DNA from: a virus
Lineage: Duplodnaviria > Heunggongvirae > Uroviricota > Caudoviricetes
DNA length: 13,421 bases
Direction: 5' to 3' (one strand)
Virus record (IMG/VR): IMGVR_UViG_3300034196_000017
Coordinates: 1 to 13,421 of that record
Part shown: in pieces, positions 3,620-11,403 of the stretch
Position numbering within the stretch: position 1 is the first letter of the stretch
How the letters are laid out: every line of letters starts with the position of its first letter
Position numbers and translations under genes: made by a program
Notes under the pieces: generated by a model
What the model was told of the DNA's origin: nothing
The model's database searches: none
What the model saw: only the letters and a program-made list of their open reading frames with translations

Positions 3620-3841
3620 ATGAAATATACAATACGATATGACTACAACTCTTGGACTCTTGGTTGTGAGTGTTGCACCGACTGTAGTTCTGAGATTACA
3701 ATCTTCAATGGTGGTACGCTGATCAAACTAATTGAGCATTCCGACTTGATGGAGAACGCTGAAGAGCTTACACAATACATCAATGAAAACCACCCAGAAT
3801 ACTCTAGCTTCACCATTGATCCTGATTCAACTTGGTGGTGA
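3620..3841 (+). CDS. hypothetical protein (73 aa) with a CxCCxxC cluster
   Basis: AAGAGGA upstream; contains GCECCTDC. Confidence 0.8.
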   Translation: MKYTIRYDYNSWTLGCECCTDCSSEITIFNGGTLIKLIEHSDLMENAEELTQYINENHPEYSSFTIDPDSTWW

Positions 3842-4463: not shown

Positions 4464-4464
4464 A

Positions 4465-4615
4465 CCCCCAAAACTTTATCAAACCAACATGGCCCAATTT
4501 CAAAGAAGTATAACAGCTTTACCCCAAAAACACAATACCCCCAAATTCCAATTCCCCCCTATTTTCAACTCCCCAAACTACAACTCTTCCCAAATCCCTA
4601 TCCCCAGAAATCCCC
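4465..4615 (-). repeat. G-tract array with a canonical G-quadruplex motif at 4589-4615
   Basis: Ten runs of 3-6 C on the + strand; the minus strand reads GGGG-ATTTCT-GGGG-ATA-GGG-ATTT-GGG. Confidence 0.7.
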
Positions 4616-4972
4616 AGATATTGGTCTGAAGTGTTTAACGCCCCGGCACCTGCCAGCCTACCGCCCGTCTAGGAATCTCAAAATCCCTGCGAGTTGGCAC
4701 CCTTCTTGCTTACCCAATCCATGGGCTAGGCACTTCCATGAGCATTGAATGCTTCTCATTCATCATGCATTTAACATAATACTGATTATACGAAGTGCGC
4801 ATCCCTTGCCCCATTGGTCACCAACAGGCTGATATAACTAGATATGTGGTATATGTGGTGGATAGGCTATATACATGCACGTTGCGTGCACTCTCCACCA
4901 TTAACACAATAATACACCCTTTCGGGCTGCATGTATAGCTTTTTCTGCTGATAATCAGCGAATATGCGCAAT

Positions 4973-4991
4973 GCAAATGATTATCACTAAC
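4973..4991. promoter_or_regulatory. Fur-box-like site
   Basis: The reverse complement GTTAGTGATAATCATTTGC matches GATAATGATAATCATTATC at 15/19. Confidence 0.5.
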
Positions 4992-5452
4992 TATTTCTCC
5001 CACTGCATGGCAGTGAAAAGGGATCGCTAGAGAGGGATGCTTAACCCTATCGCCGATAGTGTACGCATATCCCACAATAGGTAATTCTGAGAATAGTCAA
5101 TATTATGTCGTATTAACGACATATGCGTCTAATGCTTGTGGCTTAAAGCCACGGTCTACAAGGCTTTGAGAGGAACGCTATTTCTATGCTATGCATAGGG
5201 TAGGGTAGGTGCATTGCTATGCAATGAGTGAGCTTGTAGGAGCTTAGAGACGCCATTATGGGCTAGTGATAGGAGAGGGAACAGGGGTTATCACCCTGTT
5301 ATATAACCTGTTTAGTGAATAGCTATACTCTTATGTTATACATAAGAATAGTTAACTCTAAGACTATATCTCTCTAGTGGGAGTGTTTCCCACTCCTCTT
5401 CTCTTAATGCTCTCTAAACGCGCCCTCCCGTTAATACGGGAGAATCTAGAGC

Positions 5453-5491
5453 AGTATACTGGCAATCAGTCGATTTAGTCAAGACCTATTC
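5453..5491 (-). promoter_or_regulatory. sigma70 promoter pointing into the non-coding block
   Basis: GAATAGGTC-TTGACT(5482-5477)-18 nt-TATACT(5458-5453), with the same AATAG upstream element as most of the other promoters. Confidence 0.7.
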
Positions 5492-5540
5492 AGGTAATAG
5501 GTTGCTTCTGCTAACACTTTGTGGTAGGAGGGTGATTCCT

Positions 5541-5559
5541 GCTAATGATTCTCATTTGG
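5541..5559. promoter_or_regulatory. Fur-box-like site
   Basis: The reverse complement CCAAATGAGAATCATTAGC matches the Fur consensus at 14/19, with the AATGAGAATCATT core. Confidence 0.5.
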
Positions 5560-5580
5560 GTAGTGATTTATTGCTGACAT

Positions 5581-5604
5581 AAGAAAGCCCCCGTTAGGAG
5601 GCTT
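5581..5604 (-). terminator. intrinsic terminator at the end of the - strand early region
   Basis: On the minus strand, AAGCCTCC-TAAC-GGGGGCTT followed by TCTT. Confidence 0.8.
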
Positions 5605-5606
5605 CT

Positions 5607-5622
5607 TGTTCCACGTGGAACA
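5607..5622. other. parS: chromosomal-type parS site (ParB/Spo0J binding), perfect 16-bp palindrome
   Basis: TGTTCCACGTGGAACA, compared with the bacterial consensus TGTTNCACGTGAAACA; intergenic, between a stop codon and a terminator. Confidence 0.85.
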
Positions 5623-5623
5623 T

Positions 5624-5992
5624 TTAATAATCTGAATAATCCCAATCATCCATCATTTCACACATTTCCTCATGCCGTGCATGGTCGGCAATAAAACCTT
5701 TATCGGTTGCCCATTTATCCATCCATGCCTGAGCGTGTTTTAGTTTGAAGAATGTGCGACGTCCATTGTAAGAGTTTCCCGGTGACACACCCATATCACA
5801 AAGGCTTGACGTTCCCACATACTGACCTTGTGAATAAATCAAGATACATGGAACAAATAGACCAATATTACTTTCCATGTAGGGGCGGCCTGTAATGACA
5901 CGTTTGTCGATACCGTATACAGGGTGTGCAGTATAAACGGTTACACCGGCTTTCATGTCTTTGACACAGGCTTTCACGTTTGCCGTTTTCAT
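5624..5992 (-). CDS. hypothetical protein (122 aa)
   Basis: ATGA overlap with the upstream gene; followed by parS and a terminator. Confidence 0.85.
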   Translation of the reverse strand: MKTANVKACVKDMKAGVTVYTAHPVYGIDKRVITGRPYMESNIGLFVPCILIYSQGQYVGTSSLCDMGVSPGNSYNGRRTFFKLKHAQAWMDKWATDKGFIADHARHEEMCEMMDDWDYSDY

Positions 5993-6255
5993 TTGTTCAC
6001 CAATGAGGTTAGTGTTTTGAGTTCGAATTCTGGTAGATAGAACAGAGTGTTAACCCCGCTGCTGTCTATCAGAACATCATCAATATACAGGTGCCATTGA
6101 TCATGCATCAATTTGTATTTCCCTATTGTCTTACCTTGTTTGAGGTCGATAAGGTTGGCGTTACTGTCAACCCTGTATGACGGTTCCTTTTCACCGTAAA
6201 CGGTGTATGTAAAGGAGTCATCTTTGCAGTTCAATTCTTGATAAAGATATTTCAT
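5989..6255 (-). CDS. hypothetical protein (88 aa)
   Basis: AAAAGGT upstream; coupled to the next gene. Confidence 0.85.
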   Translation of the reverse strand: MKYLYQELNCKDDSFTYTVYGEKEPSYRVDSNANLIDLKQGKTIGKYKLMHDQWHLYIDDVLIDSSGVNTLFYLPEFELKTLTSLVNK

Positions 6256-6266
6256 GGTGAAACCTT

Positions 6267-6509
6267 TTAATTGTAATCGTTTTCTTCAATGAACCCGCAA
6301 GCTATAGCCCTCTTTCTAGCTTCCAACATTTGAGGGTTTGTAGTTTTGTGACCACCTGAACAATAGTCACCATGCTTACCGTATCGGCTAATAAGCGTCC
6401 AACCACTAATAGCCTCATTGCCACAGAAGTACAAGTCTTGCCCATTGTGACAACCTAGGAAATAGCAACTTTCACAATCATGCTCATGAATAGGTTTGCG
6501 ATTAGTCAT
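6267..6509 (-). CDS. conserved phage protein with a H-D-C-x-x-C motif, likely metal-binding
   Basis: HEHDCESCYFLG...DLYFC...GDY.SG pattern. Confidence 0.8.
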   Translation of the reverse strand: MTNRKPIHEHDCESCYFLGCHNGQDLYFCGNEAISGWTLISRYGKHGDYCSGGHKTTNPQMLEARKRAIACGFIEENDYN

Positions 6510-6788
6510 TTACAGGTTACTCAATGCATAGTCATATTCATGGCTGTCTATATCGTCTCGGTAAACTTTACCAAGTACCCCAATTTCAAAATCTTTGCTA
6601 CGGTACTGGCGTTTCATCACTTTGATATCAAGCCATGGTTTCAGTGGTCTATATACATTGTCTGGTCTGAATTCTTTGTGCAGTTGCTCAAACAATGAGT
6701 CAAGGCATTCAAAACCAACAGTGTGGGCAATGAGTGAACCCAATGCGTGACGTTGTTCTTCTGTCAATTTAATAGCTTTGGTTGTCAT
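6510..6788 (-). CDS. hypothetical protein (92 aa)
   Basis: Abuts its neighbours; AGGA upstream. Confidence 0.8.
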   Translation of the reverse strand: MTTKAIKLTEEQRHALGSLIAHTVGFECLDSLFEQLHKEFRPDNVYRPLKPWLDIKVMKRQYRSKDFEIGVLGKVYRDDIDSHEYDYALSNL

Positions 6789-6790
6789 GA

Positions 6791-7042
6791 TCAGTTCAGT
6801 CCTAAGGCGATTTTTTCGGCGGGTGTGAGTTTGGCAAGCGCTTGGCGTTTCAGTTCACCACTATTCCAGTGCTGAAGGTCTGCAATGCTTTCGTGAACTA
6901 CAAAGTCACGCTTTACATAGTGACCATGTTCGCCGGCTACCTCTTTAGCGTCTTTTTCATTAGACATAAAGCAATAGTGGTTAGTACGGTCGCCGCCGTC
7001 CCAACGGGAAACATCGTAAGCTTCAATGATACGAGTAGTCAT
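6791..7042 (-). CDS. hypothetical protein (83 aa) ending in ALAKLTPAEK-ALGL
   Basis: AAGGTG upstream; the C-terminal motif is common in small phage proteins. Confidence 0.85.
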   Translation of the reverse strand: MTTRIIEAYDVSRWDGGDRTNHYCFMSNEKDAKEVAGEHGHYVKRDFVVHESIADLQHWNSGELKRQALAKLTPAEKIALGLN

Positions 7043-7052
7043 GTGTCACACC

Positions 7053-7592
7053 TTAAATCATTTTGAACGATTGTACTTCAGTAGTTACAACTTCAAACCG
7101 GGTATGTAACCCTTGGGCAAGATCATCAATCAAGGTTTGAGCATTGTAGCGAATTTGATCCTCTGTACCCTCGATACCCCAAATACTATCGGATATCTCT
7201 GTTTTGTTACCTTCAGAGTCGAGTAGTGTAACTTCGATACCAACATATGACCACTCGTTATTGCACCACGAACGCAAGTACTCAAAGTCGGCACGGGCGG
7301 CAATGGCTGCTTTCTGACGTTTGCTTTCTGTACCATCTAGTGCATCACAACCCCAACCGTCACGCAATGCGATAGCACATGCTTCTTTGAAGTTGTAGTA
7401 CCGATATTCACCATTCGCGCTATTCAAAATCAACTCATCAGGACGTTTGTTGCGACGTACCCAACCTGTTACTGGACCATGCCCTTCGCAGTCTTCCCAA
7501 GGGGCGCCACTGTCATGATCTATATGTACTTCGACAGCAAAGGTCATATCAACGTCAGCAACGGTCATTTCGATATTGTTCATGGTACTCAT
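7053..7592 (-). CDS. conserved phage hypothetical protein (179 aa; PWEDCEGHGPV...RDGWG...DFEYLRSWCNNEW)
   Basis: Long ORF directly behind a promoter and hairpin module; the motifs match a widespread phage family of unknown function as I recall it. Confidence 0.9.
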   Translation of the reverse strand: MSTMNNIEMTVADVDMTFAVEVHIDHDSGAPWEDCEGHGPVTGWVRRNKRPDELILNSANGEYRYYNFKEACAIALRDGWGCDALDGTESKRQKAAIAARADFEYLRSWCNNEWSYVGIEVTLLDSEGNKTEISDSIWGIEGTEDQIRYNAQTLIDDLAQGLHTRFEVVTTEVQSFKMI

Positions 7593-7604
7593 CTCTTTAT
7601 GGTG

Positions 7605-7670
7605 AGAGGGGCTTTCCCCCTCTCTGTGACTACGATTGTACAGGGTTTAGAAAACGTTGCAAGTTTTATT
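7605..7670 (-). promoter_or_regulatory. early sigma70 promoter with a 5' leader hairpin
   Basis: TTGCAA(7662-7657)-16 nt-TACAAT(7640-7635), then GAGAGGGG-GAAAG-CCCCTCTC. Confidence 0.85.
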
Positions 7671-7920
7671 TAAACACTTTCAACCATTCTTTACCATCCC
7701 AATAAAACTCAACCTTTGCAGCGTTTGCAGGCTCATCTACGCAATAGGTACGCTTGGCATTAAGGCACAGTTCATACGCTTTCATCATTGACGGTTGATC
7801 GACAACTGTTTTAGTTGTTCCGACTGGAATTGCGGGTAATGGAATATGACTTGACCCGAACAAAAAGCAGAAGAACAAGAAAGTGAGAACCATAATGATT
7901 TTCATGGTTGATCTAGACAT
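7666..7920 (-). CDS. putative membrane-anchored or exported protein (84 aa)
   Basis: N-terminal hydrophobic stretch IIMVLTFLFFCFLFG; AAGGA upstream. Confidence 0.8.
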   Translation of the reverse strand: MSRSTMKIIMVLTFLFFCFLFGSSHIPLPAIPVGTTKTVVDQPSMMKAYELCLNAKRTYCVDEPANAAKVEFYWDGKEWLKVFK

Positions 7921-7947
7921 GCGCTTAATCCTTTATCTCGTTGGGTA

Positions 7948-7983
7948 TGGGAGTATTGTATTAAATACTCCCAAGCCTTGCAA
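7948..7983 (-). promoter_or_regulatory. sigma70 promoter overlapped by a 10-bp inverted repeat
   Basis: TTGCAA(7983-7978)-17 nt-TACAAT(7960-7955); the inverted repeat TGGGAGTATT/AATACTCCCA spans 7948-7973. Confidence 0.65.
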
Positions 7984-7986
7984 TCT

Positions 7987-8376
7987 TTATCGTACAATTT
8001 TGAAAGATTCTTTTACGTCTTCCAAGCCCCAAACACAAGCGTACAGGTCGATGTTAGTAAAACCATTGGTATGGTTGAAGTACCAGTCGGCAGAAGCTTG
8101 GACACTGAGAGTACCGCCCGATTCTTGAACACGAACTTGATAACCTTCGCTGTCCGTTGCTGTACCTTCAAGGCTGAACCATGATGCATCTTTGTCAGCT
8201 TCAAGGGTGGAACCAATCAAAGAAAGTTTGATAGTCTTTTGAGCCTGCATAGCTTTGAACTCTTTATGAGCGGTTACAAGGTTTTCTTTCAAGATACTAG
8301 CATAGGACATTTTAGAAGATGGTACACGTTGAAAGAACTCTTTAGTGGCTTTGTGTGCTTCTTTCATTACGTTCAT
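7987..8376 (-). CDS. hypothetical protein (129 aa; MNVMKEAHKATK N-terminus)
   Basis: Lies behind a promoter and hairpin module; AGAGAG upstream. Confidence 0.85.
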   Translation of the reverse strand: MNVMKEAHKATKEFFQRVPSSKMSYASILKENLVTAHKEFKAMQAQKTIKLSLIGSTLEADKDASWFSLEGTATDSEGYQVRVQESGGTLSVQASADWYFNHTNGFTNIDLYACVWGLEDVKESFKIVR

Positions 8377-8394
8377 GTTCGTTACTCTCTGTGA

Positions 8395-8462
8395 TGAGAG
8401 GGGCTTTCCCCTTTCTTGATACCAATTCTACAGCCTTTAGAAAACAGTGCAACAACTATTTC
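8395..8462 (-). promoter_or_regulatory. early sigma70 promoter with a 5' leader hairpin
   Basis: AAATAGTTG-TTGCAC(8452-8447)-16 nt-TAGAAT(8430-8425), then GAAAGGGG-AAAG-CCCCTCTC. Confidence 0.85.
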
Positions 8463-8569
8463 GATCTAATAAAAGGTTTCCTTATAACCTTCTGAGAATA
8501 ACAGGCACCATCCCTTCTTGTAGTCCGGTATCATTGTTCCCGCTAGATAATGATATACTAACTAAAACC

Positions 8570-9094
8570 TCAGTCAAGAGGTTTATAGTAATAACCTGAC
8601 TTCTTACCTAACCATCTGTGTAATGTTGCATGTGAAATATTACAAGCATTGGCGCCTTGACGTATCGTCTCAAACTCGCCATTTGGTGTACAAATAATAC
8701 CCTTTGACTTGTAATGCTTTTGTCCTTTGCAACTTTCATATGAACCATGATTTTCAGATAAAGTCAATAATTTACAGCTTTCTATCTGTTCTAACATGTT
8801 TTCATGATTTGTTATAAATCGGCAATTACCTAGAGTGTAGTGTCCTAAGTCTTTATACCTAGCCAAACAATAGTCATGTTCACCAGTGCCAATCTGATTC
8901 GGTTGAATACCAGCGTCAACCATCAAATCTTTATATTGATCGTATGTAATATTTACGCTCAAACCTCTTAGCTCGCTAGTTCTTAGCTTTGTTCGCCACT
9001 TCCGTCTAGCTACTCTATCCAAGTTGTCAGTAGCTATAAAATCATCCCGCGACCATTTATCAATATTTGATTGATCATAAAACTTACCTATCAT
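8570..9094 (-). mobile_element. free-standing HNH-type homing endonuclease with a C-terminal NUMOD1/HTH-like DNA-binding module (174 aa)
   Basis: YCLARYKDLGHYTLGNCRFITNHEN (beta-beta-alpha-metal-like) and TPNGEFETIRQGANACNISHATLHRWL. True start is ATG 9094 after AAAGGAGG, with TATAAT at 9151-9146. Confidence 0.75.
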
Positions 9095-9165
9095 TTTTCC
9101 TCCTTTCCTGTTTGTCTCGTGCCATACCTCACACCGTGTACCGTCATTATACACGAATTAAAGAC

Positions 9166-9192
9166 AAAAGAAAGCCCGTCTTTCGACAGGCT
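9166..9192 (-). terminator. intrinsic terminator
   Basis: On the minus strand, AGCCTGTC-GAAA-GACGGGCT followed by TTCTTTT. Confidence 0.9.
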
Positions 9193-9193
9193 A

Positions 9194-9209
9194 TGTTCCA
9201 CGTGAAACT
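9194..9209. other. parS: chromosomal-type parS site
   Basis: TGTTCCACGTGAAACT matches TGTTNCACGTGAAACA at 15/16; intergenic, between a stop codon and a terminator. Confidence 0.8.
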
Positions 9210-9212
9210 ATT

Positions 9213-9461
9213 TTATTCATTATCATCCGTAAACTGACTTACAAATGATTGAACGCGAGAGTCTAGGCATTTGTAAGCGGATTCAATATCACGCAAACGA
9301 TTTTGATAATAGCTTAACGCTTCGACAAATGCCGATTGTTCAGTCTTTGCACGCATCGCGAGATTAAACCCGCGAGTGGTATCATACAACCAGTATCCGT
9401 CCGTACACTCTGTGATTGCAAGGGTATCTGTCAATTCTGTGTGTTTGATAGTGCTAGCCAT
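9213..9461 (-). CDS. conserved phage hypothetical protein with a C-terminal coiled coil (82 aa)
   Basis: TECTDGYWLYD.TRG.NLAMRAKTE..AF.EAL.YYQ pattern; AAGGAAG upstream. Confidence 0.85.
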   Translation of the reverse strand: MASTIKHTELTDTLAITECTDGYWLYDTTRGFNLAMRAKTEQSAFVEALSYYQNRLRDIESAYKCLDSRVQSFVSQFTDDNE

Positions 9462-11111: not shown

Positions 11112-11150
11112 ATTTTACACCCTTTAGAAAAGGAGTCAAGAACTATTTTC
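11112..11150 (-). promoter_or_regulatory. early sigma70 promoter
   Basis: AAATAGTTC-TTGACT(11139-11134)-16 nt-TAAAAT(11117-11112). Confidence 0.85.
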
Positions 11151-11403
11151 AAGGAATTTCGTTTTCCTGTAGCTCTTTAGATTCGATGTCGATGGAAACA
11201 ATCTCGAATACCGTTTCACCGATCTGATATTTATTGAGCCAGTTTGTCAAGCCTTTTTCATCTTGCCATACGGCTTGGTATTCATCATTGTGCTGGCTTG
11301 TGTTGAGGGTGCTGTCAGCCTTGTCTGTAGTTGTATCAATGACATAATCGCTACAAGCTGACATTGTGCATACTACAGCAACAGTTGCAAATAGGACGGA
11401 CAT
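11149..11403 (-). CDS. putative exported or membrane protein with an N-terminal Cys pair (loosely YebW/DUF1482-like)
   Basis: MSVLFATVAVVCTMSACSDYVID; the family resemblance is from memory only. Confidence 0.75.
   Translation of the reverse strand: MSVLFATVAVVCTMSACSDYVIDTTTDKADSTLNTSQHNDEYQAVWQDEKGLTNWLNKYQIGETVFEIVSIDIESKELQENEIP

Follow-up and report, generated by a model that had tools for sequence, protein, structure and literature searches.

Two putative host-type parS sites in the early region of a phiPMW-like Pseudomonas phage without partition genes

What purpose could a chromosomal centromere serve in a virulent phage that encodes no partition proteins? The question is raised by the 13,421-nucleotide stretch analysed here (the window), which is the first 13.4 kb of the virus record IMGVR_UViG_3300034196_000017 (99,415 bp, 43% GC, 127-bp end overlap). 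A first-pass annotation had reported two 16-mers of the parS type in this stretch, at positions 5607-5622 and 9194-9209, and both were found there. We consider it likely that both 16-mers function as copies of the chromosomal parS of Pseudomonas and that selection maintains them in the early region of a phiPMW-like virulent phage devoid of partition genes. As exact copies of the host parS are present with no matching phage protein, this phage and most of its relatives would most likely borrow the ParB of their host.

With regard to the sites themselves, site 1 (TGTTCCACGTGGAACA, 5607-5622) is a perfect 16-bp palindrome, is the same as parS2 and parS3 of P. aeruginosa, and matches the consensus TGTTNCACGTGNAACA, a 16-bp inverted repeat, at 16 of 16 positions. 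Site 2 (TGTTCCACGTGAAACT, 9194-9209; AGTTTCACGTGGAACA on the minus, sense, strand) has a perfect 14-bp core, spelled GTTTCACGTGGAAC, and matches the consensus at 15 of 16 positions, the mismatched outer base being a T where the consensus has A or C. Chromatin immunoprecipitation followed by sequencing in P. aeruginosa identified the parS used in vivo as TGTTCCACGTGGAACM, while sites with two mismatches were unbound in strain PAO1 (Lagage et al. 2016, PMC5098823). Site 1 corresponds to this in-vivo consensus letter for letter. All 12 Pseudomonas chromosomes scanned (5-9 Mb each, including putida, fluorescens, mandelii, helleri and haemolytica) carry two to five copies of TGTTCCACGTGGAAC, and two of the 12 also exhibit TGTTTCACGTGGAAC, which is the core of site 2, beside other parS sites. 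Each of the five Pseudomonas genomes tested encodes one ParB, so the host genus has the protein, and the description of the 16-mers as canonical host-type parS is supported both by the consensus match and by the identical spelling in Pseudomonas. The phage sites resemble the chromosomal ones (PMC5098823, PMC5521831) in the identical 16 bp TGTTCCACGTGGAACM and in the clustering of a few sites within kilobases; intergenic sites on the P. aeruginosa chromosome lie beside ParB-repressible promoters, and the phage sites are likewise intergenic. Unlike chromosomal parS, they are not beside oriC, have no parAB operon nearby and are approximately 30 times denser per base than in Pseudomonas chromosomes.

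Such sequences are rare by chance. The pattern GTTYCACGTGRAAC is expected approximately 2e-4 times in the window, as in the earlier estimate, and approximately 0.0015 times in the 99,415-bp genome, in which it was observed exactly twice. No further site with up to three mismatches to the 16-mer is present in the whole phage genome. The same pattern read backwards gave no matches in the phage genome or in 17 IMG/VR relatives, and in phage vB_PseuGesM_254 it occurs three times per strand at two mismatches, which is the chance level.

The phage is a phiPMW-like Pseudomonas phage, a 99-kb myovirus of the Felix-O1/phiPMW type. Its TerL shares 81.5% identity with the TerL of Pseudomonas putida phage phiPMW (Plaisancevirus), 72% with that of vB_PpS_SYP, 65% with that of vB_PsaM_M1 and 41% with that of the PAK_P1 group, and its early-region DNA is common to phages of P. 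gessardii (vB_PseuGesM_254), P. tolaasii (phiPto-bp6g) and P. poae. Judged from this TerL similarity and from the early-region DNA common to Pseudomonas phages, the host is a Pseudomonas, probably of the fluorescens/putida group. The cultured relatives are lytic, and the regions of their genomes that were viewed hold no lysogeny annotation. The first-pass annotation had seen neither parA nor parB in the window, and this absence extends to the complete genome: Pfam searches of all 99 kb found no ParB_N, HTH_ParB, ParA (AAA_31) or tyrosine integrase. A ParB encoded by the phage itself was rejected on the same searches.

If the sites matter to the phage, are they conserved in its relatives? We scanned 17 whole genomes (1.66 Mb), comprising 14 IMG/VR relatives found by TerL, one of which is phiPMW, together with vB_PpS_SYP, vB_PseuGesM_254 and the window's own genome (G000). 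The scan found 28 perfect GTTYCACGTGRAAC cores in 12 of the 17 genomes against 0.025 expected, and a chance origin was rejected on these numbers. The absence of the sites from close relatives had been named at the outset as one of the outcomes that would speak against the idea; instead, relatives carry them, with six in vB_PpS_SYP. The only one-mismatch sites are three in phiPMW and two-mismatch sites occur at about one per genome, the chance level, so the sites are either perfect or absent: only the exact parS spelling is tolerated. The spelling varies at two positions only, those also variable among chromosomal parS. Where both early markers are present, nearly all sites lie between the homologues of the window open reading frames (ORFs) 3620-3841 and 11149-11403, within a syntenic early region that is otherwise a hypervariable mosaic; only the site of vB_PseuGesM_254 and a part of the cluster in vB_PpS_SYP fall slightly beyond this interval. 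At the orthologues of site 1 in G001, G007 and phiPto-bp6g, the core is invariant, while the terminator stem has acquired substitutions and indels and the genes upstream bear no relation to one another. In vB_PseuGesM_254, the core of site 2 is kept with an identical terminator behind a different upstream gene, and the megablast match stops exactly at the site. Taken as a whole, the pattern points to a feature that is real and under strong selection. No perfect site was found in 12 other Pseudomonas phages covering 1.37 Mb (phiKZ, PB1, LUZ24, LUZ19, gh-1, Lu11, OBP, tf, phiIBB-PF7A, YuA, PAK_P1 and M1), and parS belongs to a single clade and the phages with which it shares genes rather than being general among Pseudomonas phages.

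Homology with related phages breaks at 5622/5623 and at 9208/9209, the terminator side being conserved and the gene side unrelated. As these breaks fall exactly at the outer edges of parS, the sites coincide with joints in the mosaic of the hypervariable early region.

The patchy occurrence of parS can be read from a second constraint on these genomes, since the sites conflict with the avoidance of their own core hexamer, CACGTG. G000 and its 16 relatives avoid many 6-bp palindromes outright, with sets that vary between lineages. In G000, CACGTG escapes this avoidance (32 found, 17 expected). It is depleted in phiPMW (0 found, 20 expected), G009 (0 found, 14 expected), G012 (1 found, 14 expected), G004 (2 found, 17 expected), vB_PseuGesM_254 (2 found, 17.5 expected), G010 (3 found, 11.5 expected) and G011 (6 found, 14 expected), and the remaining ten genomes hold 8-32 copies each. 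All 10 genomes with at least eight CACGTG carry parS, compared with two of the seven depleted ones (Fisher one-sided p ~0.003, the genomes not being phylogenetically independent). Among the surviving CACGTG copies, two of three in G010 and one of two in vB_PseuGesM_254 are parS. In phiPMW, three full-length 16-mers persist, their arms intact and all with one identical core transition, to CACATG (TGTTCCACATGGAACA). The DNA of phiPMW is cut by ordinary enzymes and is free of PvuII sites (PMC5587285), which indicates that this phage avoids sites rather than modifying bases; the same paper makes no mention of parS. Lineages that purge CACGTG have thus lost parS, keep it among their last CACGTG copies or, in phiPMW, share one core change, which, at the level of sequence comparison, points to selection for the sites. 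We take the conflict over CACGTG to be direct evidence of sites that are costly and yet kept. In G000 itself, AGGCCT, CCCGGG, CGATCG, CGCGCG, CGGCCG and CTCGAG are each absent, with 10-17 copies expected.

The placement of the sites is equally distinctive. The layout first described in the window, a parS wedged between a stop codon and a terminator, is real and recurs in relatives. Site 1 lies 1 nt past the TAA (5624-5626) of ORF 5624-5992 (minus strand) and 1 nt ahead of the hairpin (~5584-5605) of an intrinsic terminator at 5577-5605 (minus), which has a GC-rich 9-bp stem followed by a U-rich tail, folds as RNA at -21 kcal/mol (z -4.0) and was also found by the terminator scan. Site 2 lies 3 nt past the TAA (9213-9215) of ORF 9213-9461 (minus) and 1 nt ahead of the hairpin (9173-9192, minus) of a second intrinsic terminator at 9164-9192 (minus), found by both scan and fold, which has an 8-bp stem, a GAAA loop and a U-run. 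Across the clade, a strict detector placed a terminator within 8 nt of 12 of 30 sites, compared with 1.9% of random intergenic positions; in the terminator-linked cases parS is always upstream of the hairpin and 0-6 nt past the stop codon, and at least 10 different terminator sequences flank the invariant core. More than half of the clade sites are not beside a terminator and occupy AT-rich, promoter-like spacers, a few being possibly coding. An IMG/VR-wide scan for the perfect 16-mer (at least 120 matches) gave no terminator enrichment among the matches listed (16% against 15% in the control, with a loose detector); several clear cases of stop codon, parS and terminator are visible by eye among those listed. 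Between stop codon and terminator, a ParB site probably occupies the only intergenic slot that is clear of both promoter and ribosome-binding site. It is also possible that a ParB roadblock is functionally linked to termination.

Could the 16-mers serve something other than the host ParB? They might be operators for a phage DNA-binding protein outside the ParB family that competes with ParB at the host origin or autoregulates early genes, in which case the host ParB would be irrelevant or a competitor. The genes flanking the sites are small and, like most early genes of the window, of unknown function, which leaves room for such a protein, and the one deviant core common to the three phiPMW sites could reflect co-evolution with it. 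However, phiPMW is without any CACGTG genome-wide, which explains its core change with no new protein, and the spelling of the sites varies only where chromosomal parS varies too. The genome holds no ParB-type helix-turn-helix or N-domain, and a phyletic profile matching all G000 ORFs to the presence of parS (tblastn against 16 genomes, its signal confounded by phylogeny) gave no DNA-binding candidate. Nine ORFs occur in at least eight of the 12 parS-bearing genomes and in none of the four without parS; eight of these, assigned with Pfam or PHROGs as a DNA polymerase exonuclease subunit, a phosphoribosyl pyrophosphate (PRPP) synthetase, NAMPT, an SPFH lipoprotein, cpYpsA, a cysteine-dioxygenase-like protein and two unknowns, were examined, and none of them is a plausible parS binder. 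We give the operator explanation a small probability.

Two further explanations do without any binding protein. The palindrome may act as an RNA hairpin upstream of the terminator, aiding termination or the stability of the 3' end, with a coincidental likeness to parS. Both window sites do lie in a transcribed 3' untranslated region and fold at -7.1 and -3.3 kcal/mol beside a terminator. The commonest sense spelling at the terminator-adjacent sites of relatives (UGUUCCACGUGAAACA), however, contains a C-A clash and reaches only -0.2 kcal/mol, and the parS sequence is invariant, with no covariation, whereas true terminator stems vary. More than half of the clade sites have no terminator beside them for such a hairpin to assist, and a 16/16 match to the host parS repeated 28 times by coincidence is not credible. 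An RNA element was accordingly rejected, as there is no Rfam match and the hairpin fails for the commonest spelling, and we regard this explanation as extremely unlikely. Alternatively, the sites may be functionless passengers, either remnants of captured host DNA or a parS-terminator cassette spread by recombination as a crossover point. This would fit the exact coincidence of the homology breaks with both window sites, the mosaic character of the region and the presence of a weakly HNH-endonuclease-like ORF just downstream of site 2. Passengers should decay, however, and no decaying intermediates are seen, the two-mismatch sites being at chance level; no flanking host-derived sequence was seen; the invariant core is flanked by at least 10 different terminators; and where a genome is purging CACGTG, the sites are among the last copies left. 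We therefore consider passengers very unlikely.

Several points nevertheless weigh against functional parS copies that serve the host ParB. Both the binding of ParB at the phage sites and the effect of that binding are what we infer from sequence. The phage is uncultured and its host is known to genus only, through its relatives. The sites are dispensable, as four near-complete relatives lack them altogether, among them G004, the nearest in TerL; in site-free genomes, the search for decayed parS gave only isolated half-site-like relics (G009 10649, G004 20208) that are non-syntenic and indistinguishable from chance. The association with CACGTG comes from 17 related, non-independent genomes. 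At two positions, G12A and the outer base, site 2 departs from the strict in-vivo consensus of P. aeruginosa; its 14-bp core is nonetheless a spelling found in the parS clusters of some Pseudomonas chromosomes. Finally, a lytic cycle of tens of minutes offers a segregation device little obvious use.

Phages that carry centromeres are known. The plasmid-prophages P1, P7 and N15 and extrachromosomal actinophages are temperate and have their own ParA and ParB and their own unrelated parS. The likeness is that of phage DNA carrying a centromere, which in their case is used for inheritance; unlike them, the phage studied here has neither par genes nor an integrase, and the site that it carries is that of the host. 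A closer parallel is provided by the virulent Bacillus phages phi29 (five sites) and Nf, whose host parS are bound by Spo0J and help the phage genome to become trapped in the spore (Meijer et al. 2005, EMBO J 24:3647, as relayed in PMC2731898). Both phi29 and Nf are likewise virulent phages without a ParB of their own that carry several host-type parS and exploit the host segregation machinery via Spo0J. The phage described here is such a phage too, being virulent, lacking parA, parB and integrase, and carrying multiple host-type parS. It differs from phi29 in its Gram-negative host and in being a 99-kb myovirus rather than a 19-kb protein-primed podovirus, and its sites, putative ParB sites by sequence, all fall within a single early region, in many cases sandwiched between stop codon and terminator. 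We know of no second host factor comparable to Spo0A for this phage, unlike for phi29. As Pseudomonas forms no endospores, spore entrapment cannot be the purpose here; the purpose may differ from that in phi29 while the way of working, a borrowed host ParB, is the same. A literature search found no paper on host-type parS in lytic phages of Gram-negative, non-sporulating hosts; the phi29 and Nf precedent makes the idea itself less new than it might seem. What is new here is the conflict with restriction-site avoidance and the terminator-linked placement, while host parS in a virulent phage was already known from phi29. Another possible model, for ParB acting on phage early promoters, is KorB-OB of plasmid RK2, in which a CTP (cytidine triphosphate)-dependent clamp of the ParB family, loaded at a palindrome, silences promoters at a distance (PMC11790492). 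Unlike the phage system, KorB is plasmid-encoded and works with KorA, whereas the phage has no element-encoded protein of the ParB family.

How might the phage use its sites if they are functional parS copies? On entry of the DNA, dimers of the host ParB would recognise the phage parS sites, close as CTP-dependent clamps and then spread over the early region of approximately 10 kb. Sequence alone does not separate localisation or segregation, SMC loading or self-mimicry, and decoy titration as the outcome. Provided that ParB binds, the purpose that we tentatively favour, at somewhat less than an even chance, is that the genome would be tethered to or positioned with the origin region of the host, allowing a stalled or slow infection (pseudolysogeny, carrier state) to be inherited; by analogy, origin tethering in Pseudomonas would be the non-sporulating counterpart of spore entrapment in phi29. 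In P. aeruginosa, ParB bound at the intergenic sites parS3 and parS4 represses adjacent promoters (Kawalek et al. 2017, PMC5521831), and a comparable damping or timing of the neighbouring early promoters by bound ParB is a possible, if rather doubtful, purpose in the phage. Given the same binding, the titration of ParB, or the redirection of SMC, away from the host origin is unlikely, and other purposes, such as protection from a defence system, are more unlikely still. It is also conceivable, although we think it improbable, that ParB clamps would do two things at once, damping the early promoters and tying the genome to the segregating host origin, and so turn the phage into a silent episome in a starved cell that resumes later. 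Were this so, it would provide a ParB-based molecular basis for pseudolysogeny in a non-sporulating Gram-negative host, with a benefit that outweighs keeping CACGTG, a restriction target otherwise purged.

If ParB does load at these sites, centromere hijacking would extend from the sporulation trick of phi29 to lytic phages of Gram-negatives, where another payoff is needed, such as positioning of the genome, inheritance of a carrier state, silencing of early genes or disturbance of host segregation, and ParB research would gain a natural, multicopy, short-lived parS substrate. The conflict with restriction avoidance is a rare case in which genomes directly reveal what it costs to keep a DNA site that mimics one of the host. 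Functional host-type parS would imply that Pseudomonas ParB binds TGTTCCACGTGGAACA, TGTTCCACGTGAAACA and site 2, TGTTCCACGTGAAACT. Cultured relatives with tractable hosts exist in vB_PpS_SYP, with its six sites, and in phiPMW, with its three core-mutated sites; if ParB binds TGTTCCACATGGAACA of the latter, phiPMW would have escaped restriction while keeping ParB.

With regard to the surroundings of the sites, the window genes from approximately 5.6 kb onward are on the minus strand. ORF 5624-5992 (minus), the last gene of the leftward early operon, encodes a Phage_g100-like protein of 122 residues (PF23772, phrog_2978), and ORF 9213-9461 (minus) is an early gene encoding 82 residues (phrog_19040). 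Just downstream of the second terminator lies a putative promoter and leader cassette at 9099-9177 (minus; TATAAT at 9151-9146) with counterparts in intergenic stretches of phiPMW and vB_PpS_SYP; the one in phiPMW has promoter and terminator features annotated. This cassette presumably restarts transcription of the next early unit. With a length of approximately 70 nt, it recurs in several early intergenic spots of phiPMW (16981-17058 and 18200-18248) and vB_PpS_SYP (2286-2334 and 3719-3787). Just downstream of the site 2 cassette, ORF 8570-9154 (minus, 194 residues) has weak similarity to HNH endonucleases (phrog_3377, E 7e-5) and is without a homologue in the 16 related genomes; an inserted homing endonuclease is one possibility.

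Approximately 100 nt downstream of the first terminator is a near-consensus sigma-70-like promoter (TTGACT-18-TATACT, 5453-5482, minus), which points into a stretch of 1.16 kb (4464-5623) in which no ORF is convincing as a gene, those present (4818-5075, for example) being weak. Rightward and leftward transcription meet in this stretch, which contains many short hairpins, has site 1 at its right edge and is partly homologous to phiPto-bp6g at 17.5-18.0 kb. Possible roles are those of a DNA region acting in cis or of a non-coding RNA. GC skew, considered as a clue to an origin near site 1, has its cumulative maximum at ~2-5 kb and its minimum at ~82 kb and tracks only the direction of transcription.

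Among the relatives, the G005 parS at 94620-94633 (L167 ~1480-1535) lies at the middle of a perfect ~38-nt palindrome, which takes in the upstream stop codon (…GGAAGCGTAAAGGTTCCACGTGGAACCTTTACGCTTCC…), with no separate terminator. At vB_PpS_SYP 295 (L132 ~283-310) and G003 5422 (L175 ~1489-1516), an extra CACGTG overlaps the left arm (CACGTGTTCCACGTGGAACA) and creates a partial third half-site. Outside the window, at 85641-88350 of G000, a PRPP-synthetase-like gene and a nicotinamide/nicotinate phosphoribosyltransferase gene lie side by side, a pair that looks like an NAD-salvage module.

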